A stretch of DNA of 21,604 nt from Planctomycetota bacterium (GTDB lineage: Bacteria > Planctomycetota > GCA-002687715 > DRQF01). The notes beneath the pieces were generated by a model that worked only from the letters and a program-made list of their open reading frames with translations, was not told the DNA's origin and did no database searches. Every line of letters begins with the position of its first letter. The first letter of the stretch is position 1. Positions 15-20,845 of this stretch are shown in pieces. Position numbers and translations under genes: made by a program. Where the stretch lies: the NCBI GenBank assembly GCA_036479435.1, contig JAZGFI010000221.1, positions 1-21,604 on the forward strand, read 5' to 3'.

Positions 15-3000
15 TCAAGCCCCTTCGTCAGAGTCGATGGAGTTGATGAGGTTGGCGCCCTTATAGGCGACTCGAATAGCGTTCTGCAGTAAGACACGGG
101 CGACAACGCTGCTGCTCGACGGCGGCCACGCCACACTGTCTGGCGGCGGGTCGGAACGCGTCTCAGAGATCTGAAATGAGTTTCCACCGGTCAAGATGAA
201 CTGGTCATTGCTGAGTTGAACATCGTCCCAGTCGAGGTCGTTGCGTGCTTCTATTGCGGCCGGCGCATCCTGGTCGGCAGCATCGAGCCCAAAACGTGGG
301 GCGGTCGGGTTCTCGGCGATGAAGAACCACCACTTGCCCGCCTCAACTTCTTCCTTCGTCAAGTTGAAGCCGACCAACATGATGTCGGGGCTTAGATGGG
401 CTTGGAACAACACGCGACCTAGATCACTGGCGATGCTTTCGTCCGAACTGGCACTGGGATTGGGTGCTTTGAAAATCGGAGTCTGGTCATCCGAATTGCC
501 CTGCTGGAGGGCCATCATGATGGCGTCGGGATAGCGTTTCACGAGTTCGCCGCGAACGACAAACACCACGAAGGGTTTGTTGCCGAGGGCGAGGTGATTG
601 CCAAGGCGCGTGGGACCGAAGCGGTGGATCGGACCGGCGAGATCGTCGCGGTCGTCTTCCCAGAATCTTTTGAAGTAAGTGCCCCGTTGATCCGTGGGGT
701 AGCCACGCCAAAGAAGTTCACGCCCCATCTCGTCGGAAAGCCCGAGGAAAAAGGCCTCAATGAAGGCGGGATTAGACTCGAGCAAAGTGACGAAATTACT
801 TTTGGCAATCTTACCCAGGCCCGGCACCAGCCAATCTCGATCGTAGGCATCGAGCGCTTCAAACATGGGTCGGTCGAATTTGGGCGCGGCCATAATGGGG
901 CGCACTTGCCGGTCGCTAAACCAATCCGGCGGGAGCCAAGCGGGGATGCGTTTCAAGAGCCCCTCGATCAGACTTGTAAACGTGACGGCGGGCTCCACCT
1001 GCGCCAGCAAAGTGCTTTTACTGATTGCGAGACCCTGTCGTTGTCGAGGTGCAGGTAGGGTCTTGATGCCGAGGTCCTGGACGGCTTCTGCGAGCTGCAG
1101 CGACAGGCTGCGAAGGCTGATCTGGGCGCTGCTTTTGAGAGCGTTGCTAAGAGCGCTCGAATCTTGGGAACCAAACCCCGCAAGTAGATCTCGCCTGCGG
1201 CCAAGGTTGGCGTCGAATGCTCGCCTGAACTGCGGGCGGTTTGAGAGGGGGCTTGAGGCCGCTAGACCGCCGGGCAACAAAGGGCCCAGGCGACGTCGGC
1301 GCGGATTGATGATGCGAACATCGTTGCCGCGAGGGCCCACGTTGAGATCTGGGAGCACATCGTTCACGCGATCCAAGATTGGCTTACTCAAGCGTTTCAG
1401 ACCGGGAATGCCGCTGGTTGCGAGTCCTGCCACCAGGCCGCCCAAGGATTCGGTCTGAATGAGATCAGGGTCGCGACCTTCGACCGCTTCAATGATCGGA
1501 CGGATGCGGCCCACAAGCTTCTCCGCTCCGATCTTTCCGGGGTTGATGTGACCGCGCGGGACCTGCCAGGTGTTCACGGGGGCGAGCAACTGGTCTGAAA
1601 GCGTCGCCTCGTTTCTAAGCGTCGCTTGGCGAGTCTCAAAGGTGGCACGCGCACGATTATGAGAGACTTTGAGAACTTCGCCGAGCACCTCATTCGAGAT
1701 GGTCGATAGAGTCTCTGGACTAATGCCACGCACGCCATCGGGTTCCGAGTAGGGCCGCCTGGAATCGATGAGGCCGGCTTCGTCGGCGACTTGGCCGAGA
1801 GGCGCCTGCAGGGCGAAGTCCTTCGCGAATTGTCCCAAGGCCCCGCGGGGTTGAGTCGCGCGACGAAAGCTCCACTTCAGCGCGGCCGGTGCCGTGAAGC
1901 TTTTATTGATCGCGGCGGCGAGCGTCAGATCGTCGCCTTGAATCTTCAGCTTCCCGTGGACGTTTTGAGTGATCTGAGCGAGGCCTGAGAAGGAAATCTT
2001 CGCTAGGTGCTTGCTGTGAATCGACGTGGATAGATAGCGGGCGAATTGCAGTAAATGCAAACGACGGTTAGCTCGGTCGATGCCACCCACTTGGGCCCAA
2101 GCGGACTGCATGAGCGCCTCTTGGTCTTTCTGCACGACGCGGGTGCCGAGTCCAGCAACGATGCGGTGTACCGGAGTCGTATTGAGTTGTTGGAACCAGT
2201 CAAAGTCGCTGATGCCGTCGACTCGGCTAGCCCCGCGGTGAAATCGTCCGTAGATACGCGGACCGATTCTGGGCAAGTCATCGGTGGCAAGATCCGAATT
2301 GAGAGTTTGCTCGTCGGGACGGTTGATACGTGCTCGGAGGGCATGGCGATCCGCCGCCTCCCATTCGGCGTTGTCGTCAGGGCTATTCGGCGGGGCGATG
2401 TTGGGCGAAAAGATGGCGCATTTTAGAACTTGGACGCGACCCGGAGCTTGGGGATCGAGGTTGGGCAAGTCCCCCTTGGGATGCGCGGCGTCGATGAACC
2501 GTCGACCTACTTCCCAGGGTGCGAGAATGGGCTTGAGTTTGCGCGAAAGCTCCTCGAAGGCGCCGCCCTTTGCGGTCCGAAAACGCCAATGGTCGTAGAC
2601 GGGAAGCGTGATCTCTTGCGCGTCATCGCCGAGAGTTCTGATCCATGCTTTATTCAGGGTGCCGCCAGGCAGGTTGAGGCCGGTTTTCACGCCGCAATCA
2701 TATGTGGGAACCAGGCAAGCGACGTAGTTCTTGCCATCCTCAAGGCGCCGTGGGCACAGCAAGCGTGCGAGGTTGACGGGGGCGTAACCTTCACCGAGGC
2801 GATCTTTGAGACTCGGAGTGGCGAGGTCGCTGCCGAGCCCGAAACTCCCATCGGGGCGGATGCTCACCGAAGGGTCGCTGCCCGTGTCGCCAATAACTTG
2901 GGCATGGGCAAAGGCCCAGGCGTTGCTGAGGGGTTGTAATTCACCCTTGATGGTCTTGACGCGCACAGGAAATCCCGAGGGCGCCGACGAAAACGCAGCG

Positions 3001-3458
3001 TGCTTACTTTCGAGAACGACCAGGGTCATCCAAGGGTCAAGGCGCTCTTGCTGTGCACCGGCCGCGGGGAAGGGTGTGTAAAGCCAGGGTAGCTCTGGAC
3101 GATCGAACTCAATATGGGCCAGAAAGCCCTCCTCGGCATCACTCGTGTCGGGGGCCGGGTAGCGCTTGATGACCTGGGATTTCTCAATGCCAAGCACATC
3201 GCTGGGGCCGCGGAGGGTCAGCGTCTTAGCCACGGGGACGCTGCGACCTTCGTCGTCTTCGATATCGACTTCGACGCTTACTTTAGCTCGCAGCTCGCCA
3301 CTGGCGGGTGCTTGCACGATGGCTGAGAATCCCTGGCGCACCCAAGGGAGGTAGGTGTAGACCCCGAGCTGGGTGTATTCTGGTTTGTAGATCGTCTTGG
3401 CGATGGAGGCAAAGGCATCGTTGACGAAGTTTGCGCTTTGCGAGAATGATCCGCTCAT
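15..3458 (-). CDS. Large hypothetical protein (1147 aa), partner of the DUF6603-like protein
   Basis: Long ORF whose ATG overlaps the upstream TGA (ATGA at 3455-3458). Motif-like blocks include YLPWVRQG, EFDRPELPWLYTP, LPVYDHWRFRT, ELLWRGYPTDQRGTYF, VRGELVKRYP and PRFGLD; I recall these from hypothetical proteins encoded next to DUF6603 genes. No signal peptide or obvious catalytic motif. Confidence 0.85.
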   Translation of the reverse strand: MSGSFSQSANFVNDAFASIAKTIYKPEYTQLGVYTYLPWVRQGFSAIVQAPASGELRAKVSVEVDIEDDEGRSVPVAKTLTLRGPSDVLGIEKSQVIKRYPAPDTSDAEEGFLAHIEFDRPELPWLYTPFPAAGAQQERLDPWMTLVVLESKHAAFSSAPSGFPVRVKTIKGELQPLSNAWAFAHAQVIGDTGSDPSVSIRPDGSFGLGSDLATPSLKDRLGEGYAPVNLARLLCPRRLEDGKNYVACLVPTYDCGVKTGLNLPGGTLNKAWIRTLGDDAQEITLPVYDHWRFRTAKGGAFEELSRKLKPILAPWEVGRRFIDAAHPKGDLPNLDPQAPGRVQVLKCAIFSPNIAPPNSPDDNAEWEAADRHALRARINRPDEQTLNSDLATDDLPRIGPRIYGRFHRGASRVDGISDFDWFQQLNTTPVHRIVAGLGTRVVQKDQEALMQSAWAQVGGIDRANRRLHLLQFARYLSTSIHSKHLAKISFSGLAQITQNVHGKLKIQGDDLTLAAAINKSFTAPAALKWSFRRATQPRGALGQFAKDFALQAPLGQVADEAGLIDSRRPYSEPDGVRGISPETLSTISNEVLGEVLKVSHNRARATFETRQATLRNEATLSDQLLAPVNTWQVPRGHINPGKIGAEKLVGRIRPIIEAVEGRDPDLIQTESLGGLVAGLATSGIPGLKRLSKPILDRVNDVLPDLNVGPRGNDVRIINPRRRRLGPLLPGGLAASSPLSNRPQFRRAFDANLGRRRDLLAGFGSQDSSALSNALKSSAQISLRSLSLQLAEAVQDLGIKTLPAPRQRQGLAISKSTLLAQVEPAVTFTSLIEGLLKRIPAWLPPDWFSDRQVRPIMAAPKFDRPMFEALDAYDRDWLVPGLGKIAKSNFVTLLESNPAFIEAFFLGLSDEMGRELLWRGYPTDQRGTYFKRFWEDDRDDLAGPIHRFGPTRLGNHLALGNKPFVVFVVRGELVKRYPDAIMMALQQGNSDDQTPIFKAPNPSASSDESIASDLGRVLFQAHLSPDIMLVGFNLTKEEVEAGKWWFFIAENPTAPRFGLDAADQDAPAAIEARNDLDWDDVQLSNDQFILTGGNSFQISETRSDPPPDSVAWPPSSSSVVARVLLQNAIRVAYKGANLINSIDSDEGA

Positions 3459-6403
3459 GCGAGGGCTCCGGGGGCGACAAGCTCGAGCTCGGCATCGATG
3501 TTCAAGGCGGTGTGAGCGTCGGCGAGTTCAATTGCGGTCGTGTAGTTGTAGGAATTGGCCTCGGCACTAACCGCGCCAAGGTCTTCGCGGAATCTCAAAA
3601 CGCGGTCTTTGGACGAGCTAAGTTCGATCTCATCAACGATCTGTTGGGCGTAGGCGTTGCCGCGATTGCGCGCCCCTATAGAAACGGCTCCGGCTCTTAC
3701 CGCAGCACCTTTCATGCGTGCGTTCATGAGCACGGCATGAGGGGGGCTCAGGAAGTGCCATTGCCGGTCGGGTCGAAGAACGGCAGTTTCCCACTCGTAG
3801 CTCACCGAACTCGAAGGACCACAACTTGGAGCTGATGTGGCGACGACTTTCATCCCCGCGGGCATGCTCTCGAATGAGGGCCGCGAAACCTGTTCGTCCT
3901 CGCTCAACTCCATGAATTGTCCCGGTGCGAACAGGTCTTCGGCGTGAGACACCAGATTGGCGTCGACGCCTTCGAGTCTGACCGCGGCGAGATTGACGCG
4001 CTTGGCGTCGGGGCGGCTTTGGCCGATACGTTCGATGTTGGTTTCGAGCGGGAGTTTCGCCTGCTTGACCTCAAGTGAGCCTAAGGGGTGGACGAGCAGT
4101 GGCGTTTGATCGTCTTCGATGAGCTTGACCAATGTCTCGGTGCCAGCGGGCAGAATCGGTTTCCAAACTTCGTCGTCCTCAAGCGCCTCGGCGACCACTC
4201 CGATCGCCGATATGGAGGGCAAGGTGCTGCTGTCAGAATCACCCCAAGTGAAGGGCCCGAGGTCGAACTCGATATCCCACCAGAGCACAGAGACGCTCGC
4301 GTAGCCTTCGATGGACCAAGGGTTCGTGCCCTTGAGGGTGCCTTTGAAGTCAACTCCGAAAAGATCGAAGCCGAAGGCCGAGATGGATAGGCCCGCCGTG
4401 ATGCGAACTTCGAAGTAAAAGCGCGGCGCCCATCGAAAAAGGGCATCCAAGGTAAGCCAGCCCTTGCCTTTTACGGGGCCGAGCTTGGCGTTGAGATGGA
4501 TGCCAGCCCCGAACTGCAGGGAGTTGGTAGTGATGGCAAAGTAACCTTCGGCGCGCAGCGACAGCCATTTGGCGGGCGAAAGGTCGACCGTGATCTTGCG
4601 AAGGCCCTGGAGGACGGCGGGAGCTTCATAGCCGGGGAAGAATCCTCCGACACTGATGGCAAAGTCCGCACCACCGGCCCAACGGATGTAGATTCCCATG
4701 TCGCCGCTAACGGAGATTCCCGCGAGCTTGGAATTACTGATGCCAATGAGCACCAGCATGTACTCAGGCGTGAATTCGCCGTAGACCTCAGCCTTCAGGT
4801 CGACGATCTTAAGGCCGTCCGGGACCTTCGTTGAAGGCACCCCGATTTCGATCGCGCCGAGGATGATTAGTTTTGGATCAGGCAACGAAAGGATGATGCC
4901 AACCTTAGCTTTGACAAAGCCAGCCTGAGATCCCCATCCCAACTCTCCAATGGGGCCCACCGCAAAGGCACCTTCTTGGGCGGGGAAGACCTTTTTGACC
5001 TTCTCAAGAATCGTGTTGGCAGCGTCGATGGGGTTTTTGGGAAAGAGCAAAGTCGCGGCCGTGCCGTCGCGAATGCCCTTGCGCAACTCATCCGTCGAGA
5101 CGCGACGTTCGACCGCCAAGATGCCGCCCAAGCCGTTGAGCGTGAAGCCCAATCCGAGATCAATCGCCGGTGAAAACTGGACCGACAAGATGACCACGAA
5201 GGAGAAGGGATCGGTGACCATCAATCCGATAGCGGTGATGCGGAAGTCGCCGATCTTCAAATCGAGAATGCCGCTGTACTCGTTGTCTTCGCGTCTGATG
5301 AATCCGCCGCCGCTGACGATGCCCGCATTGACCCGAACGCCAAGACCGTCCGGAAGCCGCGGTGAAAACTCGAGGTGGTCATTGCTGGCTTCATCCCAAC
5401 GCACGGTCACCCCGGCGCCTTCAACGACGATGCCCAGGGCGTCGCCGAGTTTCGCGGCTAAAGTCGCGGTGACTTCAAAGCGATCGTCGGCTTCCTCTTC
5501 ATCTTCGTTGGGGAGAGCGATGGCGAATTCCCGAAGCTCGATTCCCGGGAAGGAGAAACTGACGGGTAGAGTGAGTTTGCGGTTCTTGCCCGGCCCAAAG
5601 GTGAGGCCGTCATCGGAATCGAGCTGGATCATCGTCGATTCGGCCGTTGGATTGGCACCATTAGGAATGACTTTTTCGAGCAACTTATCTGAGCGCAGAC
5701 CGGCTTGCATTTTGGTGCGGAAGCGTAGGCCCACATTGGCTTTGTCTTTGTAGTTGAAGAACGCGAGGAGCGTCATCTGTTGGAGATTGAAGACGCCGAA
5801 ATCCCGGTGATCGATTTGGGCGATCTCAAAGCGAAGCTCTTTGTTGGCGCGATCGAAAGTAAGGGCATCTCCCAATTCTTGGGAGGCGTTGTTCATGCCG
5901 AATAGTTGCTCGACGATATCGTCAAAGGCGCCGCCAAGGCCCGCCGCCACGTCGCGGAAGGGCGCTTTCCAAGGCTCGGTAATGCCCTCGATTGCGTTTT
6001 TGATTGCCGGCTGAACGACGCCGGCGGCGTTTTTGGATAGCTCGGTTGCGACGATGGTCAAGGCTTCGTCCGAGGCGATCATTAGAAAGGCCAGCTCGGT
6101 CGCGGCACGGCCCGCTGCCTCGATGGTGAAGGGGTCCGTCTGCAACTCGGTCGCCATGTTTTGCGCTGCCACCTTGGCCGCGTTGATCTTGGGCGTGATG
6201 AGCGGGATGACGGGCTGAACCACACCGCTGAGGTTGTCGACGTCGTCTTTTAGTGAGTCCCATGCCGGGCCGCTCGGGGCATCTGTGAAAATGGAAGTGA
6301 TAAACGAACCCGAGTCACTGAAAGTCGTTCCCACGAAGTTGGAGGCTCGCGTTTCGCCAAACGCCAACACTCCTTGCACAAGACCAGTCCATACGTCCGT
6401 CAT
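3455..6403 (-). CDS. DUF6603-like beta-strand-rich large protein (~982 aa)
   Basis: Start revised from TTG 6478 to ATG 6403 (MTDVW...), which has a GGAGAGG SD upstream. The protein has an N-terminal helical region, then long runs of amphipathic beta strands (GGGFI, LGLGFTLNGLGG, SVGGFFPGY, YFAITTNSLQFG, FDLFGVDFKGTLKGTNPW) and a C-terminal VHPLGSLEVKQ...FAPGQFMELS...PSFESMPAG block, all matching my recollection of DUF6603 proteins. Confidence 0.8.
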   Translation of the reverse strand: MTDVWTGLVQGVLAFGETRASNFVGTTFSDSGSFITSIFTDAPSGPAWDSLKDDVDNLSGVVQPVIPLITPKINAAKVAAQNMATELQTDPFTIEAAGRAATELAFLMIASDEALTIVATELSKNAAGVVQPAIKNAIEGITEPWKAPFRDVAAGLGGAFDDIVEQLFGMNNASQELGDALTFDRANKELRFEIAQIDHRDFGVFNLQQMTLLAFFNYKDKANVGLRFRTKMQAGLRSDKLLEKVIPNGANPTAESTMIQLDSDDGLTFGPGKNRKLTLPVSFSFPGIELREFAIALPNEDEEEADDRFEVTATLAAKLGDALGIVVEGAGVTVRWDEASNDHLEFSPRLPDGLGVRVNAGIVSGGGFIRREDNEYSGILDLKIGDFRITAIGLMVTDPFSFVVILSVQFSPAIDLGLGFTLNGLGGILAVERRVSTDELRKGIRDGTAATLLFPKNPIDAANTILEKVKKVFPAQEGAFAVGPIGELGWGSQAGFVKAKVGIILSLPDPKLIILGAIEIGVPSTKVPDGLKIVDLKAEVYGEFTPEYMLVLIGISNSKLAGISVSGDMGIYIRWAGGADFAISVGGFFPGYEAPAVLQGLRKITVDLSPAKWLSLRAEGYFAITTNSLQFGAGIHLNAKLGPVKGKGWLTLDALFRWAPRFYFEVRITAGLSISAFGFDLFGVDFKGTLKGTNPWSIEGYASVSVLWWDIEFDLGPFTWGDSDSSTLPSISAIGVVAEALEDDEVWKPILPAGTETLVKLIEDDQTPLLVHPLGSLEVKQAKLPLETNIERIGQSRPDAKRVNLAAVRLEGVDANLVSHAEDLFAPGQFMELSEDEQVSRPSFESMPAGMKVVATSAPSCGPSSSVSYEWETAVLRPDRQWHFLSPPHAVLMNARMKGAAVRAGAVSIGARNRGNAYAQQIVDEIELSSSKDRVLRFREDLGAVSAEANSYNYTTAIELADAHTALNIDAELELVAPGALA

Positions 6404-6460
6404 GCCGATCGCCTCTCCGGTTGCGCGCCCTGTCTGAACAAGACGCATCCGTCCTAAGAG

Positions 6461-6479
6461 ATTGACCACAAGGGTCAAT
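6461..6479. promoter_or_regulatory. Perfect inverted repeat ATTGACC-N5-GGTCAAT, candidate operator upstream of the DUF6603-like operon
   Basis: 7-bp arms at 6461-6467 and 6473-6479, about 60 bp upstream of the ATG at 6403. Each arm contains a -35-like TTGACC. Confidence 0.4.
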
Positions 6480-6707: not shown

Positions 6708-8429
6708 TTAGAGACCTTGGATTTCGGTGGCGTCGGTTGCCGTGAAGAAGGGGTTTCCAGATTGAGCGCTGGGGGCCAGAACGAAGCCCTGGAACATGAT
6801 GCTGAATCCGGAAAGGAAGACGGGCATGACATAGAGCATGGTGATGCCGTCATTGGGAAGAAGGCTTGGAGGAAAAGGGGAGGCGCTTCCGTCGAAGAGA
6901 ACGATGACGGCAAAGGCCTCAAAGGGGGAGGGGTTCACCCAAGCTTCTGGGAAGCCGAGGGGTTGAGTGATGGAGGTTCCCGTCATCTTAGGTTGGGCCA
7001 CGAGCAGTGGGATGGTGTTTTCGTAATCGCGGCGCGAGCCGAAGAAGACCTCGAGCAGGTCGCCACCGTTGGCAGTTTTGACGTCCGGAAAACGCGTTGG
7101 GGAGCCGTTGACGCCGGTCGCAATGACCAAGTCGCTGCCGGAGCCAGGATAAGTCGACGCCGGAAAGGAGTAGATCAAGACACTGCCGCTGTCGATGAGT
7201 CCGTTGGGATCGGCGAAGGGCGAGCCCGCGATGATCTCGGGTATTCCGTCTCCAGTGATGTCGCCAATGGATGCGAAGCGGTCTTGAATGTTGGCGAAGG
7301 CTTCGGGCCCCTTGGCTTGGTGAAAAAGCGTGCCGTCCGAGCCTGAGAACACTGATAGAACGCCAAACGATCCAAAGTCTTTGGCCCCAACAATGAGCTC
7401 ATTGATGCCGTCGCCATTGAGGTCGCCAGCGGAACTAACCGTGGTGCCAAAGGAATCTCCCGGCTGCTCGCCGAGGAACTGGAATAGTATCGATCCATCC
7501 TGTCCGGAATAGACCGTGGCGCTGCCGGAACTCGCGGGACTGAGGCTATCGGTGGAAGTGCCCACGCAAAAATCGCTATGGCCGTCCCCGTTGATGTCGC
7601 CAAGGCCGGTCACGGACTTGCCGAAGGGTTGCCCGGAAGTGGCGCTGCTTAAAGTGTAGAGCACTGAGCCGTCGAAGCCAGAGAACACGCGGGCGTATCC
7701 GTCAGGCGTGGTCGCAATGGCTTGAGTTCCACAGATCACATCGTCGAAGCCGTCGTTGTTGACATCACCGGCACCGGCGACCCGGTAACCGAGGCTCTCA
7801 TTGCTGTTGCCCATGAAAGTGTGGATAAGCGTGCCGTCAAGACCAGAGTAGATGCTGACGGTTCCCGAACTGGAACCGTTCGCTTCGTCTTTGAAGGCTC
7901 CAATGACGATGTCTGGGCGTCCGTCGCCATTGACGTCGCCGGCCGATGCCACCGACCAACCGAAGAAGTCGGAGTTGTCGTCGCCGTTAAAGGTGTACAA
8001 GGCCGTGCCGTCGAAGCCGGAGTAAACATAGACGCGTCCGACTCCGAGGCCATTGGGGTAGCCGTGGGAGCCCACGATGACATCGTCAAATCCATCGTTA
8101 TTGACATCGCCCGCCGCTGCGACTGAAGTCCCCATGAAGGCCGCGGTACTCTCGCCCGAAAAGCTGTAAAGAACGCTGCCATTGGCACCGGAATAGACCC
8201 TCGCGCGGCCCGCACTTGCAAACGCTGAACTCTCGTTCTGGGCGCCGATGATGTAGTCGGCGATGCCGTCGTTGTTGACGTCACCTGCTGCCGACGCTGA
8301 GAACCCGAACCTCTCGCCCGCGGTCGAGCCGTCGATTCGAAGGAGTTCAGGTGTCCGTAGCTGAGCCATCACTGAAGCACTGGTGAAGATGATAGCGGCG
8401 ATAAGTAGGTATCCGTGGCGCATGAGCAT
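6708..8429 (-). CDS. Secreted FG-GAP / integrin-alpha-like seven-repeat beta-propeller protein with C-terminal domain (~573 aa)
   Basis: Start revised to ATG 8429 (or 8423), giving the signal peptide MLMRHGYLLIAAIIFTSASVMA-Q. Seven FGxSV(A)xxGD(V/I/L)NxDGxxD/E repeats carry DxNxDG Ca-binding loops. A ~145-aa non-repeat C-terminal domain follows. Confidence 0.9.
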   Translation of the reverse strand: MLMRHGYLLIAAIIFTSASVMAQLRTPELLRIDGSTAGERFGFSASAAGDVNNDGIADYIIGAQNESSAFASAGRARVYSGANGSVLYSFSGESTAAFMGTSVAAAGDVNNDGFDDVIVGSHGYPNGLGVGRVYVYSGFDGTALYTFNGDDNSDFFGWSVASAGDVNGDGRPDIVIGAFKDEANGSSSGTVSIYSGLDGTLIHTFMGNSNESLGYRVAGAGDVNNDGFDDVICGTQAIATTPDGYARVFSGFDGSVLYTLSSATSGQPFGKSVTGLGDINGDGHSDFCVGTSTDSLSPASSGSATVYSGQDGSILFQFLGEQPGDSFGTTVSSAGDLNGDGINELIVGAKDFGSFGVLSVFSGSDGTLFHQAKGPEAFANIQDRFASIGDITGDGIPEIIAGSPFADPNGLIDSGSVLIYSFPASTYPGSGSDLVIATGVNGSPTRFPDVKTANGGDLLEVFFGSRRDYENTIPLLVAQPKMTGTSITQPLGFPEAWVNPSPFEAFAVIVLFDGSASPFPPSLLPNDGITMLYVMPVFLSGFSIMFQGFVLAPSAQSGNPFFTATDATEIQGL

Positions 8430-8634
8430 GTTTGGGTCTCGGTTTTGATTTGGACGTGGTGCTAGGGTGGCGGGAGCTAAGGGTGGAAACGCGGTGCGGC
8501 AGCGAGGCCGGTGAAAGAAGAGCCAGGTTTTTTGGTTGGTAACAGCGAGGTACGATCGCAGCGTACACCATCGTCGGCGAAAGCTCAAACCATAAGGAGC
8601 CAGAAGCCGGGGCTAAGCCAATCTGGAGGAATTG

Positions 8635-10251
8635 ATGGCAGAAATCCTTGCAGAGACGTTTCTAGGCTACGTCAACCTTGAACCCGAAGAAGCAACAAGT
8701 TTGGGCTGGATTGGAGTCGAGACGGCGTTGCGTGACATGAGCGAAGACGGCGAAGCTCGCCGGGAGTCGTTTTATCGTGAAGTCCTTTCAGATCTTGCGC
8801 GCCTGGAAAAAACGCGCCATTCAGTCGACGAGGAACTAGACCGCAAGACTCTGCGTCGTCACGCCGAGTTTGAACTCTTCGCCATAGAACTGGGATTTCA
8901 GTGCGCGAATCCTCAGTGGGCTCTTTATCCCTTTGTCATGACTCGCTATCTCGCCGCCCAGGGTCCATCGAGTTCCGCCGAAGCGCTGGTGGAACTCGAT
9001 GGACCCTGGCGCGAGCGAGCCCGCCAAGTCGCGGTGTTTTTGAAGGAACACCAAGGACAACTGCTGAGAGCCAAGGATGCCGGCCAAGTAGCGCACGCGT
9101 CCTTCATCGAGTCCCTTTGCGATGTTGAGCTGCCAGCGGCTCGCCGGTTCTGGGCGACATTGGAGGCAGACGCGAGCGAAGCCGTCGACGAGCACATTGA
9201 ATTCCTGCGGCGCGAGCTTCTTGTCGTCGCCCCCGAAACGTCACGACTGGGTTCGGAAGACTACGCGGAGCGGCTGCGGCTCAGTTATTGCATCGAAACG
9301 CCGCTTGGGGACATAGTAAAGGTAGCGCAAGCGTCGTTAGCCGAAACGCAGGCCGAGATGCTGGCCTTGGCACAAGCCTTGGACTTGCCGCGACGGCCAA
9401 ACACATTTGCCGACGTGGTCGCCCTGATGGGCGAAATGCAGAACAGAACTTTGGCTGAGATCGCTTTGGACACAAAGGGTGTCGAAGAACACTACCGCGA
9501 AATCATGAGCAGAGTCATGAACCACATGGTGGCCATCAAGGAGTTTGAAGCCATCGAAGTCGATGAGCTGGGAATGGATGTCTACCCCGAGGGCATGCGC
9601 GATCGCGGGGCGGGCACGAATTGGCCGGCCCCTTTGCTGAAGCGTTCAGGGCGCGGTCAGTTTGTGATTCATCCCGAACCGGCCGCACATTCGATGGCAT
9701 GGGATCATGTCTTGGCGGTTCATGAAGGAGTGCCGGGCCATTTTCTGCAGTCGCGCGGATTCCAAGGGAAGTTTTCGGAGTCCAAGGCCCCGGTGCGCTT
9801 TCTAGCGGTCGCGGATGATGTCGCGATTCCGCGACTCAACATGTGCGCGATGCTGAATATTGAGGGCTACGCCGTCTACGCCGAAGAGTGTGTGCGTCGC
9901 TCGGGATTCTACGAGACCGAGCAAGAGCTCTTCGCCCTGGCGGCCCATGCCCTCCGCGCCGTGAGGGTGGTCGCCGAGATGCAGTTTCATCGCGGGGAGT
10001 GGAGCAAGGCTGAAACCGAGGCGTACGTGTTAGAGAACTCGGGGATTTCCAATGCCCATTGGGAGTTGGAGCGCTACCAGCGCTGTCCCTTACAGGCCGT
10101 GGCCTACTTCTTCGGAGCCCAGGAATTCTGGAGGCTTCGCGAGCAACTTGAGCTGAGTCGCGGTGAGTCCTTCTCGGCGGCAGCCTTTCATGAAGAGATC
10201 ATGACTTACGGGCCAGTCTTGCCGCAAGACATTGCGAACGTGATAACTTGA
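8635..10251 (+). CDS. DUF885 family protein (putative zincin-like metalloprotein)
   Basis: GGAGG SD at 8625-8629 before ATG 8635. Family motifs AVHEGVPGHFLQ, EGYAVYAE, LRAVRVV, ELERY..P.QAVAY..G and FHEEIMTYGPVLP. No signal peptide. Confidence 0.88.
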   Translation: MAEILAETFLGYVNLEPEEATSLGWIGVETALRDMSEDGEARRESFYREVLSDLARLEKTRHSVDEELDRKTLRRHAEFELFAIELGFQCANPQWALYPFVMTRYLAAQGPSSSAEALVELDGPWRERARQVAVFLKEHQGQLLRAKDAGQVAHASFIESLCDVELPAARRFWATLEADASEAVDEHIEFLRRELLVVAPETSRLGSEDYAERLRLSYCIETPLGDIVKVAQASLAETQAEMLALAQALDLPRRPNTFADVVALMGEMQNRTLAEIALDTKGVEEHYREIMSRVMNHMVAIKEFEAIEVDELGMDVYPEGMRDRGAGTNWPAPLLKRSGRGQFVIHPEPAAHSMAWDHVLAVHEGVPGHFLQSRGFQGKFSESKAPVRFLAVADDVAIPRLNMCAMLNIEGYAVYAEECVRRSGFYETEQELFALAAHALRAVRVVAEMQFHRGEWSKAETEAYVLENSGISNAHWELERYQRCPLQAVAYFFGAQEFWRLREQLELSRGESFSAAAFHEEIMTYGPVLPQDIANVIT

Positions 10252-10322
10252 ATCTCAGGTGCGGGCTCTTGAGCTCGAAGCTTTATCCTCTGACTGTTTC
10301 TCCTCCTTGTGGAGTCTTTGCG

Positions 10323-12437
10323 ATGCGCTTGCTGTTACTTGCGGTGGTCTTTTTGAGTTGCAAGGTCTTGCTGGCTCAAGATGCGTCGTTCGCCGAGGGC
10401 ACGATAGAAGTAGGAGACCGGGCGTTGCCGTATCGTCTGCTTTCGCCGCCCAAGGTAGAGCCCGGCAAGCGCTATCCCCTGATCTTGTTTCTACACGGCA
10501 TGGGTGAGCGAGGCGCTGATAATCGCGCCCAACTCAAGTACCTTCCCACGCTGATGGCGGCAAAGGATCGGCAAGAGAAGAACCCTTGCTTTCTGTTGGC
10601 ACCGCAATGCCCCAAAGACTGCAACTGGAATGCTGTCGATTGGCGTAATATGCGCGCGCGGGGACTCGGCAAGAAAACTTGGTCTCAGCTTGCCGTCATC
10701 GAAGCGCTCAAGAAAGTCGTGCGTTCAAACCCCGTTGATGTCGACCGCATCTATTTGACGGGTCTTTCCATGGGTGGTTTTGGCGCTTGGGAACTTGCCG
10801 CTCGTCATCCCGATTGGTTCGCAAGCTGTGTTCCGGTCTGCGGTGGTGGTGATCCGAAGTTTGCGAGTCGTTTGCTGGGGATGCCTATTTGGGCTTGGCA
10901 TGGGGCGGCTGATCGCGTGGTCCCGCCATCGGCGTCGCGGGTGATGGTGGAGGCTCTAGGCGAGTATGGGTCGTCGCCCTTGAAGTTCTCTGAATTGGAA
11001 GGCGTAGGGCACAACTCTTGGACGGTGGCTTATGGCGATGACGGCGCGATCGACTGGATGTTCGAGCACTCCCGCAGCCTCAAACGAAAACTCGCGGGTC
11101 TTGAGATGCTGCGTCGAACACCGTTGATCCGAAAAGGCGAACGCATCGCCTTTTTAGGCGATTCGATTACCCAAGCCGGGGCTGGTCCGGGCGGCTACGT
11201 TGATCTCATCAAAAAAGTCCTCGCCGCAAGGGGCGATTTGGAAGATGTCGTGGTCATCGGCGCGGGTATCAGCGGGCACCGAGTCCCCGATCTCGAAAAG
11301 CGCCTTGAAAGGGATGTTTTGAACAAGGGTGCGACTTTGGTGTTTATCTACATCGGCATCAATGATGTTTGGCATTCCAGGTCGGGCCGCGGCACCTCCG
11401 CTGAAGATTTCGAGGCTGGCCTCATTCGAATCATCGATCGGATAAAAAAGTCGGGGGCCACCGTCATCCTCGCCACGCCGACCGTCATCGGCGAACGCGC
11501 GACTGGCCGCAACGAGCTCGATGAGATGTTGGATCAATTTTCGGCCATCAGCCGCAAGGTCGCGGCGCAGGCGAAGGTCACTACCATGGACCTCAGAACC
11601 GAAATGACCGATCACCTCGCCGTTCTCAACGCGAGCGATCTCGCCAAGGGCATCTTGACGACGGACGGCGTTCATCTGAATGCGGCGGGAAATCGATTCT
11701 TAGCCGACCGCACGGCGCGCAGCATGGTTGAGGCCCTTGAACGCCGTGGACCGAAACTTTCGCGCGCCGCAATCGACGGTGCTGGCTGGAAGAAATTGAC
11801 CTTGGCAGACTTCATCAACGTCAACGGCACCAAAGAAACCTGGACCGAACGCGACGGCAGTATCGTCTGCAGCGGCATCCCTCTCGGCGGTGCACGGTCC
11901 AAGATCAAGTACCAGAATTTCGAATTGGTCTTGGAGTGGAAGCACCACCGGCACGCGGGTAACTCCGGTGTGTTTTTGTGGTGCCCAGAGTCAGCCTTCA
12001 CCGATCTTCCGCCCAAAAAGCTGCCTCGCAGCGGCATCGAAGTCCAAGTCTTAGACTTGGGCTACGAAGAAAACTGGGAGAAGTCGAAAGGCTCACCGTC
12101 GAATTGGTTCACTAGCCACGGCGACGTCTTTCCGGTTGGAAGCGCCAAGATGACGGCGCTGACGCCTCAGATCGAGTACTCACGGCCCGACGGTGCGACC
12201 TATACCGTTGGTAACGCCAAGAGTTCGCGCAGCTTCCCGACGAAACGCCTGACGCGCTCGGCCGGACAGTGGAATCACTACTACATCCGCGCCATCAATG
12301 CTGAAGTACGACTGTGGGTTAATGGCGAAGAGGTGAACGGCGGTACTCAATGCTCGCCGTCCACAGGCTACCTCGCCCTTGAGTCCGAAGGTTCCACGGT
12401 TGAGTACCGCAACATCAGATTGCGAGAGTTGCCCTAA
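10323..12437 (+). CDS. Secreted tri-domain protein: alpha/beta-hydrolase esterase + SGNH/GDSL hydrolase + DUF1080 (3-keto-glycoside hydrolase-like) domain (~704 aa)
   Basis: Start revised to ATG 10323 (GGAG upstream), with signal peptide MRLLLLAVVFLSCKVLLA-Q. Domain 1: YPLILFLHG, GLSMGG nucleophile elbow, WHGAAD, GVGHNSW. Domain 2: FLGDSITQ, GISG, IGINDV, DGVHLN. Domain 3: YQNFELVLEWK, GNSGVFL, EVQVLD, GQWNHY, GYLALESEG, YRNIRLREL. Confidence 0.9.
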   Translation: MRLLLLAVVFLSCKVLLAQDASFAEGTIEVGDRALPYRLLSPPKVEPGKRYPLILFLHGMGERGADNRAQLKYLPTLMAAKDRQEKNPCFLLAPQCPKDCNWNAVDWRNMRARGLGKKTWSQLAVIEALKKVVRSNPVDVDRIYLTGLSMGGFGAWELAARHPDWFASCVPVCGGGDPKFASRLLGMPIWAWHGAADRVVPPSASRVMVEALGEYGSSPLKFSELEGVGHNSWTVAYGDDGAIDWMFEHSRSLKRKLAGLEMLRRTPLIRKGERIAFLGDSITQAGAGPGGYVDLIKKVLAARGDLEDVVVIGAGISGHRVPDLEKRLERDVLNKGATLVFIYIGINDVWHSRSGRGTSAEDFEAGLIRIIDRIKKSGATVILATPTVIGERATGRNELDEMLDQFSAISRKVAAQAKVTTMDLRTEMTDHLAVLNASDLAKGILTTDGVHLNAAGNRFLADRTARSMVEALERRGPKLSRAAIDGAGWKKLTLADFINVNGTKETWTERDGSIVCSGIPLGGARSKIKYQNFELVLEWKHHRHAGNSGVFLWCPESAFTDLPPKKLPRSGIEVQVLDLGYEENWEKSKGSPSNWFTSHGDVFPVGSAKMTALTPQIEYSRPDGATYTVGNAKSSRSFPTKRLTRSAGQWNHYYIRAINAEVRLWVNGEEVNGGTQCSPSTGYLALESEGSTVEYRNIRLRELP

Positions 12438-12460: not shown

Positions 12461-14086
12461 CTAACGACCGAACAGAAGCTCGAGGCCGTTGGTCGTTGTA
12501 GGCGCGGGGGATAGCTCGGCGGCCTGAAGGTAAAAGCGAAAGCCGAACAAGGTGGGCTCTCGAAGGTTTTCGAAGGCGCGAAAAATGCCGGTGCTATCGG
12601 CCATGAGGTTGGCGGTGAACAACAGGTCGTTGGGAGTGGGGGAAACGTAGAGCGGGAATGGCGTGCCGCCGATGATCGAGTCGGTCGGTGCTAAACTCAC
12701 GGCCACGAGAATCGCAGCGCTTGGAGTGGCGCCGCTGACGACAATGTCGCCGTGCTCAGGAGTGTCGAGGCGTGGCTCCCAGCTGAGTGACAGGGCACCA
12801 GGTGCCGTTCCGTAGGTGTTGGCTCCCATGATGGAGGAGGCAGTAACCGTAACCGCCGCTCCCGCTGCCGCGTCAAAGTCGCACCACAAGAACTCGGCGA
12901 TTCCGTCGCCGTTGACATCAGAGATGATCGAAGAACGGATCGGAAGGTCGGCCAAGATCGTGCCGTCGCTGCCCGAAAAGACACGGCGCGCAAATTCGAT
13001 GTGGATGCCTTGTGAGGACGAAAAGACCTCGTATCGCGTTGTGAAATCTGCAACCCCATCGCCGTTGATGTCGCCGATGGGGTTGTAGCGATCTTGGGAA
13101 TAGATGCCGGTGCCGAGAGTGATACGCGAAAACAAGAGCTGTCCTTGAGCGGAGTGCATCCCCAGCCAGCCGATACCAGAAAGGGCGTTGTTGCGGTCGA
13201 CGCCGTGGACCAACAAGTCGTCGCGACCGTCGCCATCGACATCGCCCACGTTCGATAGTTGCTTTCCGTAGAGATCACCCGCGGTCGCTCCGCTGACCGT
13301 CGCGACGAAGGTTCCGTTGAAGCCGCGAAAAACGTGGACATGTCCGTGGCTTAGCGGCAGGTTGTCAACGCTGACAAGGATTTCGGGAAAGCCATCGTCG
13401 TCGCCGTCGTCACCCCAGTCGAGGCTCATGAAAGTTCCGCTGGGGCAAGAGACGGACTGAAGCACGGCACCCGTGGCGCCGCTTCTTACCTCAGCGTAGG
13501 CTCCGGCATTGATGCCAAGGCTTTGACCAATGAGCAGGTCAAGCACGCCATCTTGATCAAAGTCCTTGCCGCAGCGAATCTCAGCTCCGTAGCCCGCCAC
13601 TGGAGAGGCGAGCGGTTCCCAATGGTGGACGGTTGAACCGTCAAACCCGGAAAAGATGAAGACGTCGGAACGGAAACTCGTACCGCCAAGGCCGCTCGTT
13701 GGCTCAAGGTCGTTGGCAATGGCAAGGTCTGCAAAGCCATCGCCATCGACATCACCCACATCTATGGCTTGAACGTCGCCAAACTCAAGGTCGGTCACGT
13801 TGAAAGGGCCGTGCAGGTGGATGGATGCGCCCGTCATTCCCGACCGAACATCGACGTAGTTTTCGATCGCGACCACTGAGGTGGAGCCGGGAGCCGTGAA
13901 GATGGTTTTTCGCAGGACCATCGCGAAGTCGTGTCTCCCGTCGCCATCGACGTCGCCGAGGGCACAGGCATCAACCAGCACCTCATCCGCGGCCAAAGAA
14001 AACTGGTACTGGATGGGTAGGGACTGCCCCTGGGCAAGATCGAGCAGGATCACGACAAGCAGCAGGACGGAGCATCGCGCGAACAT
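12461..14086 (-). CDS. Secreted FG-GAP/VCBS repeat beta-propeller protein with C-terminal domain (~541 aa)
   Basis: Start revised to ATG 14086 (GGGAG SD upstream), with signal peptide MFARCSVLLLVVILLDLAQG-Q. About seven degenerate GDVDGDG-type repeats and SGxxG turns. The C-terminal domain ends FGFRFYLQ...TTNGLELLFGR. Confidence 0.85.
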   Translation of the reverse strand: MFARCSVLLLVVILLDLAQGQSLPIQYQFSLAADEVLVDACALGDVDGDGRHDFAMVLRKTIFTAPGSTSVVAIENYVDVRSGMTGASIHLHGPFNVTDLEFGDVQAIDVGDVDGDGFADLAIANDLEPTSGLGGTSFRSDVFIFSGFDGSTVHHWEPLASPVAGYGAEIRCGKDFDQDGVLDLLIGQSLGINAGAYAEVRSGATGAVLQSVSCPSGTFMSLDWGDDGDDDGFPEILVSVDNLPLSHGHVHVFRGFNGTFVATVSGATAGDLYGKQLSNVGDVDGDGRDDLLVHGVDRNNALSGIGWLGMHSAQGQLLFSRITLGTGIYSQDRYNPIGDINGDGVADFTTRYEVFSSSQGIHIEFARRVFSGSDGTILADLPIRSSIISDVNGDGIAEFLWCDFDAAAGAAVTVTASSIMGANTYGTAPGALSLSWEPRLDTPEHGDIVVSGATPSAAILVAVSLAPTDSIIGGTPFPLYVSPTPNDLLFTANLMADSTGIFRAFENLREPTLFGFRFYLQAAELSPAPTTTNGLELLFGR

Positions 14087-14231
14087 GGAAGGTCTCCCCA
14101 AAAGACCAAAGAAGGGTCATGATCTCGATAGAAACGGGAACCCAGTTGTTGCAAGCCCTTTGAGAAAAACAACGCTAACTCAAAGATACTCGGTATGTGC
14201 CCGCTTACGGGACCATCACCGACAGATCATG

Positions 14232-15155
14232 TCATGACCTAACCACGGGCAAGTGCACCTTGAGCTCGAAGTGTTCATAGCCCTGAGCGAAAGGTTTGCC
14301 GATCCAGGCCTCGAAACAGGGTTGATCCGCCGGCAGATAACGACTATTGGGAAGCCAGGTGCGAAACAGCCAATCAATCGCGCGTAACTCAAGGTCGATA
14401 CCACCCCGTATCTCAAGCTCAGCGACCGTCATGGCGGGAAAGTCCATCCGGCCGATCTCGCCCGAGAGTTGTACGTCCGGCACCTCGACGCCAACGTCGT
14501 AACGGCAATCGGCCAAGGGAACGACCTCGGGATCCTCCCACATATAGCCCAGCCATTGACCGCCATCGAGATTGCGCTCTTCGGCCCAGGCCATCAGTTT
14601 CTGTGCGGCATCGCTCACGACATCGGGGCGATAGGGGTCAAAGACCCGCAGGTAGGCCACGCAGCGCGGAGGCAACTCGCGGATAGTGGCGGCGAAGCCA
14701 TCGGGGTTCTCGCCAGCGGGAAGACGCTTCAACCGCTCTGCAATCTTGGGATCGCCGCTGGAGTCTTGAAGTTCTTGCCGCCGTTGGTCGCGGTACGATT
14801 CGAGGTCGAAGGCACTCGGCGGGACGCCGAAACGCTTTTTGAAACTGCGCGAGAAATCTGACGATGAAGCAAATCCGCAGCTGTGCGCTACTTCCGTTAG
14901 CGAAAGAGATCTTTGGTGGCTCATCATGAACAGTGCGCGTTCTAAGCGAACTCGGCCGACGAACTGGTTGAGCGTTTCTCCCACCAGACTCTTGAACACG
15001 CGATGAAAATGAAAGGGCGAAAACAAGGCGACGGCCGCGACGTCCTCTAAGCGAAGGGCTTGGCTCAAGTTGCGCAATATGTAGTCGATGGCGCGGTTAA
15101 CTCGTTCGACGTAGTCGAGCGGGGCCGGGTCTGAGTTTTCGTTCAAGTTTCGCAA
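14232..15155 (-). CDS. AraC-family transcriptional regulator with C-terminal GyrI-like ligand-binding domain (Rob-like architecture)
   Basis: N-terminal double HTH (LEDVAAVALFSPFHFHRVFK; LTEVAHSCGFASSSDFSRSFKKRFGVPPSAF). C-terminal GyrI-like region (EDPEVVPLADCRYDVGV, WLFRTWLPNSRY, PCFE). The TTG start is uncertain. Confidence 0.92.
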   Translation of the reverse strand: MRNLNENSDPAPLDYVERVNRAIDYILRNLSQALRLEDVAAVALFSPFHFHRVFKSLVGETLNQFVGRVRLERALFMMSHQRSLSLTEVAHSCGFASSSDFSRSFKKRFGVPPSAFDLESYRDQRRQELQDSSGDPKIAERLKRLPAGENPDGFAATIRELPPRCVAYLRVFDPYRPDVVSDAAQKLMAWAEERNLDGGQWLGYMWEDPEVVPLADCRYDVGVEVPDVQLSGEIGRMDFPAMTVAELEIRGGIDLELRAIDWLFRTWLPNSRYLPADQPCFEAWIGKPFAQGYEHFELKVHLPVVRS

Positions 15156-15291
15156 GGTATGACAATCTTACTCGAAATGGGAATGGCAGTTGCCCCAAGT
15201 AGAGGGCCTGTTCCAATGGCTTTGCTACGATGCCTTAGTTCGTTGCTCAGGAGGGTCAGCTTTGAATTCGTTATGGCGCGAGAGGTCGCAG

Positions 15292-16683
15292 ATGTGTTGT
15301 CGTCCGTGGAGCCTCTTAATCGTTTTGATTTTCGTTTCGCTTTCCTGCAGCGAACCGTCGGGGCAGGCTGGAGATGCCGCGCATTCTGAAGGCGACCAAG
15401 ATGAGCTGAGCGAACTTATCGTACTGCTTGGATCAGACTCGGAAACGATGGCTCAAATCGAAACCGTACTGAAACAGTCGGTGCGAGACTCTGAGGGCGT
15501 GACGGCGGTCAAGGCAAGGTCCGGCGTGCCGTCTCGCTGGTTGATTGTTGAACTAGATGATAGGAGGCTGCAACGTTCTGGCGTCCAGCCGAGCGAAATC
15601 CTGAGGATCGTTTTCGAAGCGGAAGAACGACTGGGTTCCCCAGAGTCGAGTCAAGGGAAAGACCGCGAGATACTAGGGAACCTTGCCCTTACGACCAAGG
15701 GAGACTCAACCCTGCTCTTGCGCGACGTCGCCCGGATAACGGTGGCAAAAGACCCGAATAACAAGGTGGCGTGGTGGCAAGGCAAGCCAGTTGTGGTCCT
15801 CGACGTTTTCCGAAGGACAAGGGCCAACGCCGAGACGCGGAGCCAACTCCAAAGCCGTATCGTTGACGCGTGCGACAAGCTCAAAGACGAGGTCTTGATC
15901 CTGGCGGCCGAAGAACTTGCGATCATCGACTTCGAGTTCGCCGCGGGCACGTCAATCTATAGGTTTAATGCCCTGGCCGGGGAGATTGAGGCCTTCTTTA
16001 CAGCCGAAGATTCCCCGCTGGTGGAAGTTGATGCTAAGAACGGTGTTATCCGCGTGGTCACCAAGTCAGAGGCCTTCGGCGCGATCAACCAGATCTTAGC
16101 TCGCTTGCCAGGAGCTTCTTTGAAGACAGTTCTGCTTGGGCGTTCGAGTCGAGGGCGTCGCGTCGGATTTGAGATTGAAGGAGAGGCGCCGGCGGCAATT
16201 CGAGAGGTCCGAAAAAGACTAGTTGATGAGATGTCTAGAGTCGACGGTGTCCTGACTTTTCCTACCGTCCAACCTGAAGATTTCTTGCAAACCGAGACGG
16301 TGATTGACGAAAAAAAGGCAGCGCAGTTCGGACTGACCCGATCCGCCATCATGCAGTCGATTCAGTTGAATACCGGCGGCATTCGCTCCCCTCAGAGCCG
16401 CGTGCTCGTCGGCTACTTCGGGACCGGCTTTGATCTCCAGTCTCTCAAAGGCATGCACATCTCGACTCCAGCAGGCACGGCCGTGCCCTTGGCCTTGGTT
16501 GCGACCATGCAGTCACGAAAGATGGCGGTGTCTGAACACCAGGTCGGAATCCTAAAAGCCCGCGTGGGAGTCCTTTTGAACGGAACTGGCTCTGTCGATC
16601 GGCGCCTGAAAGCGGTTCGAGCGGCGGTGGTGGCACTTCCCTTGCCAGAGGGCTTGCGAATCACCGAGGTATCATCGAACTGA
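15292..16683 (+). CDS. Exported (probably lipo-) protein consisting only of AcrB/CusA-like RND periplasmic subdomains, with no transmembrane domain (~463 aa)
   Basis: Start revised to ATG 15292 (GAGAGG SD), giving MCCRPWSLLIVLIFVSLSC, a hydrophobic stretch ending in Cys. RND ectodomain-like motifs: EGVTAV..LIVELDDRRLQRSGV, LLLRDVARI, GKPVVVLDVFRRTRANA, AGTS, FEIEGE, MSRVDGV, IDEKKAAQFGLT, ISTPAGTAVPLALVA, LPEGLRI. No hydrophobic helices after the leader. Confidence 0.75.
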   Translation: MCCRPWSLLIVLIFVSLSCSEPSGQAGDAAHSEGDQDELSELIVLLGSDSETMAQIETVLKQSVRDSEGVTAVKARSGVPSRWLIVELDDRRLQRSGVQPSEILRIVFEAEERLGSPESSQGKDREILGNLALTTKGDSTLLLRDVARITVAKDPNNKVAWWQGKPVVVLDVFRRTRANAETRSQLQSRIVDACDKLKDEVLILAAEELAIIDFEFAAGTSIYRFNALAGEIEAFFTAEDSPLVEVDAKNGVIRVVTKSEAFGAINQILARLPGASLKTVLLGRSSRGRRVGFEIEGEAPAAIREVRKRLVDEMSRVDGVLTFPTVQPEDFLQTETVIDEKKAAQFGLTRSAIMQSIQLNTGGIRSPQSRVLVGYFGTGFDLQSLKGMHISTPAGTAVPLALVATMQSRKMAVSEHQVGILKARVGVLLNGTGSVDRRLKAVRAAVVALPLPEGLRITEVSSN

Positions 16684-16813
16684 CACCTGTGACGGCGATA
16701 GGCGGCGATGCCCTTATGCTCGATGGACCAGCGCGTCGATAAGGCCCGATGGCCCATCGTCGGTTTTGCACCTTGAGCCACGCCCTGACGGCCACGGCAA
16801 GGAGCTGAATCCA

Positions 16814-17011
16814 ATGGCGACCATGGTCTTCTCAGTATTCTTCGGCGCCATCGGTTTCGCCTACTTCATCTACGGAAAAAAGCAGCAACGCATGGTGCCT
16901 CTCGTCGCGGGTCTCGGCCTCTGCGCTTTTCCTTACGTGGTTCCCAATCCCTACGCCGCAGGCATCATCGGCATGGTCCTGACGGCCGCGCCCTGGCTGA
17001 TTCGTGAATAG
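16814..17011 (+). CDS. Small integral membrane protein (65 aa, 2-3 TM helices)
   Basis: AAGGAG SD at 16799-16804 before ATG 16814. The FGAIGFAYFIYGKKQ...GLGLCAFPYVV pattern resembles a widespread small membrane hypothetical family (recollection). Confidence 0.8.
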   Translation: MATMVFSVFFGAIGFAYFIYGKKQQRMVPLVAGLGLCAFPYVVPNPYAAGIIGMVLTAAPWLIRE

Positions 17012-19330: not shown

Positions 19331-20845
19331 TTAGTGCCCCTTGCCTCCGACGACTTGGAACACGCCGTTTTCGTCGGGCTCGAGCTCGTAGTGGAACCAG
19401 CGCTTAGTATCGCTGCCCTTTTCGTTGCGGAATGCAATTACGGCCTTGTTTCCGTCGGTGCGGAGATTGATTGCGCCGTAGACGCCTACGTTGCGCCGGA
19501 ACAGCTCGTTGAGGATGGAATGGCGTTGATCTTCGAGGGCCTTCTTTTTGATTGTGTCAGTTGCCTTGTCAATCTTCTTGACGAGATTGTCGAGTTTCTT
19601 GCGCAGTTTTGGGTCCTCGCGCTCGCGAGTTGAACGCAAGAGTTCGGTGCACAACACTAGAGGGCGATGTCCACGGCCCTTGCGGCCGAGAAGGCCGAGT
19701 AGGTCTGGTCGTGGATGAACATGGCTTTCTTCGTCACCTGAGGAAACGATGAACCCGGCCGGAGCGGTGGCTTGTAGGAACTCGTCGGTGACATCGGATG
19801 AACCGTGATGGCAGCTTTTCATCAGATCGACACCGAAGCGGTTGGATGCTTTCGCGATCATCTCTTCGGTTTCCTCCATCGTGGTGGGCGCTTTACCATC
19901 GTTGCCGTAGTGGCGAATCAGGAAGTGTTCCGCCGGTAGGTTGAGGTCTCCGCCGAATAGCACCGAGAATTCGCGGTATTGCAGCCGCAGCAGTATTGAG
20001 TGTCCATTTTTGGTCTTACCGCGATCCATCGCTTTTGCAGTGAGGGTCTTGGCGAAGGTGCGCAATCCTCGCTTGCCGTTGGGCGCCTTTTCGGCGACTG
20101 GTCCCAGCACTTCGATCGTGAATTCCTTGTTGTCCGAGGGCCCGAATCCGTGCATCCACGTGCGACCGTCCTCCTTCTGACCGTGGTGACTGGACAACAT
20201 GCGGACGTCACCGAAGCGAGAGCTCGTGAGCGCCTCCCAAATAAGTTTCGGATAGCGTTTGCGGCCGCGTGTCGTTTTGTCCTTGTAGAGCCTCTTTGCG
20301 GACGACTTCGTCGGATGGATGTCGGTCAGGTAACCCTTCTGAATGGGCCCCAGTAGGTCCTTGCCGGTCCGCTCGAGGAGGCCGTTGTGGTAGACGTATT
20401 CGAAAGAGATCTTTTGGTTCGTGAAGATGTCCTGGAAGCCCTCGTAGTGATCGGCGTCGGGGTGTGTGACGACCGCGGCGTGGAACCTAAATTTCTTCTT
20501 GAAATCGCGAAACCGCCAATTCAGGAATCGGTTCATATTGTCACTGATTCCCGCGTCGATGATCATGATTTTTTCTTTCGAGCCGGTGGCCGGTGTTGTG
20601 AGGATACAACCATCGCCCTGGCCGACGTCGAGGAAGATCATCTCGCAGAGCCGCTCACTCTGGTAATCGTCTTTTTTGATCGCGAACTTGTTGCGACCCC
20701 ATCGCACTTCGGACCACTTTTGGTCGATGTCGTCGCCAACGCGCAGCCAGTCGCCCCAAAGAAGCTGCTTCTGTTTCTTTTTCCGGGTTGCACAATCGTA
20801 GAGATAGACAACGGGACCCTTCGCGTAAAAGACGTTGCTAGCCAT
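19331..20845 (-). CDS. ComEC/Rec2-like metallo-beta-lactamase-fold hydrolase with small N-terminal SH3-like module (504 aa)
   Basis: Motifs FLDVGQGDG, IIDAG, THPDADHYEG, N..SILLRL..FSVLFGGDL, KSCHHGS and HVHPR. GGAG SD before ATG 20845. No signal peptide and no ComEC membrane domain. Lys/Arg-rich. Confidence 0.85.
   Translation of the reverse strand: MASNVFYAKGPVVYLYDCATRKKKQKQLLWGDWLRVGDDIDQKWSEVRWGRNKFAIKKDDYQSERLCEMIFLDVGQGDGCILTTPATGSKEKIMIIDAGISDNMNRFLNWRFRDFKKKFRFHAAVVTHPDADHYEGFQDIFTNQKISFEYVYHNGLLERTGKDLLGPIQKGYLTDIHPTKSSAKRLYKDKTTRGRKRYPKLIWEALTSSRFGDVRMLSSHHGQKEDGRTWMHGFGPSDNKEFTIEVLGPVAEKAPNGKRGLRTFAKTLTAKAMDRGKTKNGHSILLRLQYREFSVLFGGDLNLPAEHFLIRHYGNDGKAPTTMEETEEMIAKASNRFGVDLMKSCHHGSSDVTDEFLQATAPAGFIVSSGDEESHVHPRPDLLGLLGRKGRGHRPLVLCTELLRSTREREDPKLRKKLDNLVKKIDKATDTIKKKALEDQRHSILNELFRRNVGVYGAINLRTDGNKAVIAFRNEKGSDTKRWFHYELEPDENGVFQVVGGKGH

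Follow-up and report, generated by a model that had tools for sequence, protein, structure and literature searches.

The periplasmic head of an RND permease is usually regarded as functional only as a trimer seated on its membrane motor. What, then, is to be made of a gene that encodes the head on its own? Such a gene lies in the 21,604-nucleotide stretch of DNA analysed here (the window), where an open reading frame encodes a protein, P0001, whose parts can be laid out as follows.

15280–15285, plus strand: Shine-Dalgarno-like GAGAGG, with the ATG 6 nt downstream (from sequence)
15292–16683, plus strand: TM-less RND headpiece gene P0001, 463 aa, a single intact ORF
15292–15348, plus strand: predicted lipoprotein signal peptide, residues 1–18 plus Cys19 (pattern match), probably of RND TM1 origin
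15349–15402, plus strand: low-confidence acidic linker, residues 20–37, at the site of PN1 in relatives
15403–15525, plus strand: first half of PN2, residues 38–78 (predicted model and domain mapping)
15535–15750, plus strand: DN docking subdomain, residues 82–153, its trimer loop reduced at about residues 114–122 (nucleotides 15631–15657)
15766–15906, plus strand: second half of PN2, residues 159–205 (predicted model)
15907–15915, plus strand: PN2–PC1 junction, about three residues replacing TM2–TM7 (predicted model and span lengths)
15916–16137, plus strand: PC1, residues 209–282, a complete fold with a short beta2–beta3 hairpin (predicted model)
16156–16671, plus strand: first half of PC2 (residues 289–324), DC (residues 330–412) and second half of PC2 (residues 421–460)
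14232–15155, minus strand: divergent AraC/GyrI-like regulator gene, 136 nt from the headpiece gene

RND permeases have 12 TM helices in two repeats and a length of about 1,000 residues. TM2–12 are absent from P0001, in which about three residues join PN2/DN to PC1/PC2/DC, and the stop codon falls at the expected start of TM8, the second half of PC2 ending at residue 460 of 463. The preliminary description of this DNA had proposed just such an arrangement (an intact frame with a Shine-Dalgarno sequence and a Cys-ending leader, PN2/DN running straight into PC1/PC2/DC and a stop where TM8 would begin), and both the sequence and the predicted model bear it out. The RND similarity on which that description depended is also found by profile search, the porter and docking subdomains being homologous to those of RND permeases. 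The best match of the predicted structure, in which pLDDT is below 50 over residues 1–35, is to the engineered soluble AcrBper structures.

P0001 is one of a family. An exhaustive phmmer search returned 12 matches (the query, six proteins of 554–585 aa, four full pumps and one chance match) and further members were added by genome searches (G273; G403, 2 of 41 genomes; the G401 set, 6 of 61 including G401; the G402 set, 5 of 51 including G402). There are 18 distinct full-length members including P0001, 16 of them with loci; beyond these lie three more proteins, one full-length and two incomplete at the N-terminus. Members are 463–593 aa long and 16–55% identical to one another, all 18 match PF00873, and all begin with a leader beyond which there is no TM helix. 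They also have common cut points: the span equivalent to AcrB 310–680 (the TM2–7 region) measures 96 aa in P0001 and 93–117 aa in 18/18 members, compared with 338–516 aa in 58/58 pumps, whilst 17 of the 18 end at or just past the end of PC2 and the G318 member about ten residues before the others. The proton-relay region is absent, the whole of TM2–7 and TM8–12 having gone.

In a tree built on 16 rows the members form one clade (support 100/99), omega is about 0.05–0.1 in two subclades, indicating purifying selection, and clade-specific Cys pairs are present, new pairs having arisen separately in two clades. The comparison with same-length homologues and the dN/dS analysis that had been suggested earlier thus yielded 17 more full-length proteins and omega well below 1; together with the common cut points, the single clade and the Cys pairs, these results uphold the view that the protein was repurposed rather than left to decay. 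The notion of a unique short form or a misassembly fails, given the 18 members and a locus that is identical in contigs from two studies. The headpiece gene has a patchy spread: within its phylum at least 3 of 401 genomes have it, none was found in 40 relatives of the source genome (G000), and there is one copy per genome in the genomes examined. The family is likely to be spread over two phyla. The G401 and G402 genomes are 9–10 Mb in size and the loci 70–73% GC; the Enterobacterales and Rickettsiales labels of the genomes carrying L047 and L048 look doubtful given 9–10 Mb and ~70% GC.

Amongst solved structures, the family profile finds its best matches in the HME-RND pumps CusA, CzcA and ZneA (TIGR00914; CusA E 1e-60, ZneA 2e-58), with MdtB matched at E 3e-59. 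CusA/CzcA/ZneA are also the nearest group in trees, the short and HME rows grouping at 91/93 (not starred; 98 in a quick tree), which weakly places the family beside CusA/CzcA pumps. Unlike those pumps, the family has no proton relay and lacks cusB/cusC-like neighbours. The HAE-1 pumps AcrB, MdtB and MexB (PF00873, NF033617) are about twice as long as the headpiece proteins, which cannot transport; P0001 scores 38 bits against NF033617, for which the cut-off is 1250. Members have either no database name or, in some cases, that of 'multidrug efflux pump subunit AcrB'. A search of titles and abstract openings, which took in few subscription journals and no supplements, found no description of a natural TM-less RND headpiece, the available part of PMC4446572 giving general background only. 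This is a real and apparently undescribed family, derived from an RND permease yet without its defining features.

The earlier proposal of a clean loss of both TM blocks and PN1 holds for the former, with the same cut points in 18/18, but not for the latter, which is private to P0001: here the PN1 span is 17 aa compared with a median of 80, the deletion falling on a subdomain border, whereas a profile built from pumps alone recognises PN1 in 16/18 members. In the closest relative that profile does not recognise the segment in the PN1 region; the segment after the leader in that protein (L046:4262–4500) is helical and unlike PN1. As for the leader, an export signal had been thought to have been gained. 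The pump profile, however, matches from model position 10–14 in five members, so that the leader occupies the place of TM1, and the lipobox Gly, which 83% of members have, lines up with G23 in TM1 of AcrB; TM1 has therefore probably been converted into the leader, as judged from the alignments. Lipoprotein export by the Sec/SPII route is marked by a basic N-region, a hydrophobic stretch and a lipobox Cys. This pattern fits Cys19 of P0001, where the residues at -3 and -2 are other than the commonest ones, and is found in 12/18 members and 0/58 pumps. Export is predicted for the family, as is a lipid anchor for most members, with the mode of anchoring varying.

Does the headpiece still form a trimer? 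In AcrB the protruding loop of DN contributes 46.9% of the subunit interface, and deletion of 17 loop residues gives a folded monomer (PMC3230630, in extract). In the family this loop is 16–35 aa long in 18/18 members and in pumps 38–44 aa (58/58), ranges that do not overlap, although in member P0005 it is near full length at 35 aa; the corresponding stretch of DC is mostly retained. The family thus resembles the AcrB delta-loop mutant in the loss of the loop, the mutant differing in being a laboratory-made, full membrane protein (PMC3230630). PN1 lines the centre of the trimer whilst PN2, PC1 and PC2 face outwards as walls of both drug pockets, PN2 and PC1 having a common beta-sheet (PMC8277102, in extract), which makes a direct PN2–PC1 link structurally natural. 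With PN1 and the DN loop gone, both central trimer contacts are lost in P0001. By analogy the headpiece proteins are likely to be monomeric, and the shortened DN trimer loop of 18/18 members tells against the earlier idea that headpiece trimers might dock onto TolC.

Within the family, nearly all columns at or above 60% conservation are scaffold positions common to pumps, and the 18-member alignment has no ligand residue conserved family-wide and no His, Met or Cys column. PC1, which supplies a wall to each of the two pockets, has the lowest conservation of any part (20%), and DN and DC, though present in 18/18, show no extra conservation. The AcrB Phe pocket is not kept, in a region where the PC1 alignment is weak. 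We take the periplasmic metal site of CusA to be M573/M623/M672; Met is absent from these columns in 18/18, the PC1 alignment again being weak there. A G-x-P-x-H motif in a PC1 loop (e.g. in the L080 member) is common to G425, G419, G418, G423, G484 and P0084–P0086, and is a candidate lineage-specific ligand residue site.

A scan of up to three called genes per side at 15 other loci (63 proteins; three loci reach contig edges) found no adaptor, channel or RND family amongst the neighbours (0/63), 17 of which lack a Pfam family, and none of the ten in the source window is an adaptor or outer-membrane factor. The earlier remark that no MFP or OMF gene is adjacent is therefore correct here and extends to the other loci. 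In one clade the headpiece gene is translationally coupled to a gene for a sulfatase-like lipoprotein (three loci) or for a ~300-aa secreted Cys-His-Glu protein (one locus). The secreted protein (L047:3577–4479, L080:2847–3749, L081:4470–5363, L082:180–1082) has no Pfam family, has invariant GDCDSK, H and EP, and resembles a transglutaminase-like cysteine enzyme. In G402, G479 and G423 its gene lies on a different contig from the headpiece gene; it is present in 4/5 further genomes tested, but was not found in G000. Compared within one set of four genomes, the headpiece is 39–52% identical and an adjacent secreted protein 64–71%, so the headpiece evolves faster.

Several full RND pumps are encoded in each of eight carrier genomes inspected (carriers being 80–92% complete where stated), and adaptor homologues are present in the source genome at the C103, C118, C130 and C206 loci. 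The headpiece proteins group with no own-genome pump in trees, and the best own-genome match of P0001 is 26% over 135 aa. Two full pumps of G000 (C118:5163–8834 and C206:50537–54193; ~1,200 aa) have internal insertions.

Within the window, the AraC/GyrI-like neighbour is a possible regulator of the headpiece gene, although it is not conserved beside other members. Downstream of the headpiece gene lie an imperfect inverted repeat (~16705–16765) and then a gene for a small hydrophobic protein of 71 aa without a family (16796–17011, plus strand). Elsewhere, a 1147-aa ORF without a Pfam or NCBIfam family (15–3458, minus strand) shares 4 nt with a DUF6603 gene of 1007 aa (3455–6478, minus strand), the two possibly forming an undescribed operon. 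Two secreted FG-GAP repeat proteins (6708–8588 and 12461–14101, both minus strand) apparently have a common type of C-terminal tail, the gene at 10248–12437 (plus strand) encodes a fusion of alpha/beta hydrolase, GDSL esterase and 3-keto-disaccharide hydrolase, and a 504-aa MBL-fold protein (19331–20845, minus strand) gives weak matches, below cut-offs, to the Avs1a and 6A-MBL anti-phage models.

What might the headpiece do? Our tentative preference, which we put somewhat short of an even chance, is for a monomeric, envelope-anchored binding protein that would bind a small ligand within the clefts separating its porter subdomains. A single deletion in a pump, probably from the CusA/CzcA side, would have fused PN2 to PC1, with a stop codon arising ahead of TM8 and TM1 becoming the signal peptide. 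Having no TM domain, the headpiece cannot pump, and with the DN loop cut, and PN1 at the trimer axis also lost in P0001, it would not trimerise. The parts left, PN2, PC1 and PC2, face outwards and in pumps form the walls of the access pocket and the deep pocket; with these walls retained, the headpiece, whether periplasmic or on the cell surface, would serve to buffer a ligand, to carry it or to present it, and the ligand probably differs between lineages. The precedent is AcrBper, which lacks TM helices and yet folds and binds drugs (PMC8617272, in extract), and this, together with the varied anchoring and docking subdomains without extra conservation, favours the binding protein. AcrBper binds drugs as a trimer, however, so that binding by a monomer is extrapolated from it (PMC8617272). 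AcrBper is man-made, still has both PN1 and the DN loop, and is trimeric in its crystals, whereas the headpiece family is natural, exported and only ~15% identical to it, with a short DN loop and no Phe pocket. The reading is weakened by the lack of a conserved ligand residue and of the known metal and drug residues, and the retention of DN and DC in 18/18 might be more than a pure ligand binder needs.

That retention would suit a modulator of pump assembly, in which the monomer either parks adaptors as a decoy or caps unfinished trimers by accepting the DN loop of a protomer, the main rival explanation, which we regard as rather unlikely. The subdomains that face outwards are retained, as are the two docking subdomains, losses being confined to elements of the trimer centre; the DC side is kept and the DN loop lost; and the single headpiece copy in each genome examined is accompanied by several full pumps in the eight inspected carriers and, in the source genome, by adaptor homologues. 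The headpiece gene never adjoins a pump or adaptor (0/63), however, has no affinity with own-genome pumps, and evolves faster than an adjacent secreted gene, DN and DC being no better conserved than the rest. Taken furthest, this explanation would make the headpiece the first natural 'pseudo-pump', a motorless monomer that regulates tripartite efflux as a built-in dominant-negative RND subunit, parking adaptors or capping protomers and accepting a neighbour's DN loop whilst giving none; we think this unlikely.

It is also unlikely, in our view, that the fold has been re-used as an envelope scaffold or receptor for a non-efflux partner, be it a protein, a polymer or the neighbouring secreted enzyme. 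Conservation almost confined to scaffold positions, the translational couplings in one clade and the separately arisen Cys pairs would suit this, but coupling is limited to close kin, the neighbours of other members are unrelated, and the secreted protein is unlinked in three genomes and was not found in the source genome.

Could P0001 instead be a decaying copy of a real family, minus PN1 and perhaps its function? PN1 is absent in P0001 alone and unrecognisable in its closest relative, the two sit on a long branch, the 40 relatives of G000 yielded no copy, and codon adaptation of P0001 lies at the 9th percentile of the genome. Against this, the frame is intact, the subdomains are complete with the deletion at a subdomain border, P0001 shares 30% identity with its relative across 432 aa, pN (0.48) being lower than pS (0.72), and the sequence is the same in both studies; we find decay very doubtful. 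Finally, a split pump with its TM-only partner encoded elsewhere is highly improbable, since, although the cut points coincide exactly with TM borders, no TM-only RND half was found amongst the 12 source-genome ORFs matched by TM or periplasmic profiles (weak TM-only matches: three proteins of 757–923 aa; two contig-end fragments), no short TM-only frame recurs in five other carriers, and it is by way of TM2 and TM8, which connect to the porter domain, that pumps couple energy (PMC8277102).

Whichever role applies, the family is natural, selected and monophyletic, a head freed from its motor and retained for another job. In the literature searched, the soluble form is a crystallographers' construct, of which the headpiece family is the natural counterpart, offering small, soluble and probably monomeric proteins for studying the porter and docking domains alone. 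Database entries labelled as AcrB pumps yet unable to transport affect counts of resistance genes. And if the headpiece does prove to modulate pump assembly, it would represent a new way of controlling how efflux pumps are put together.
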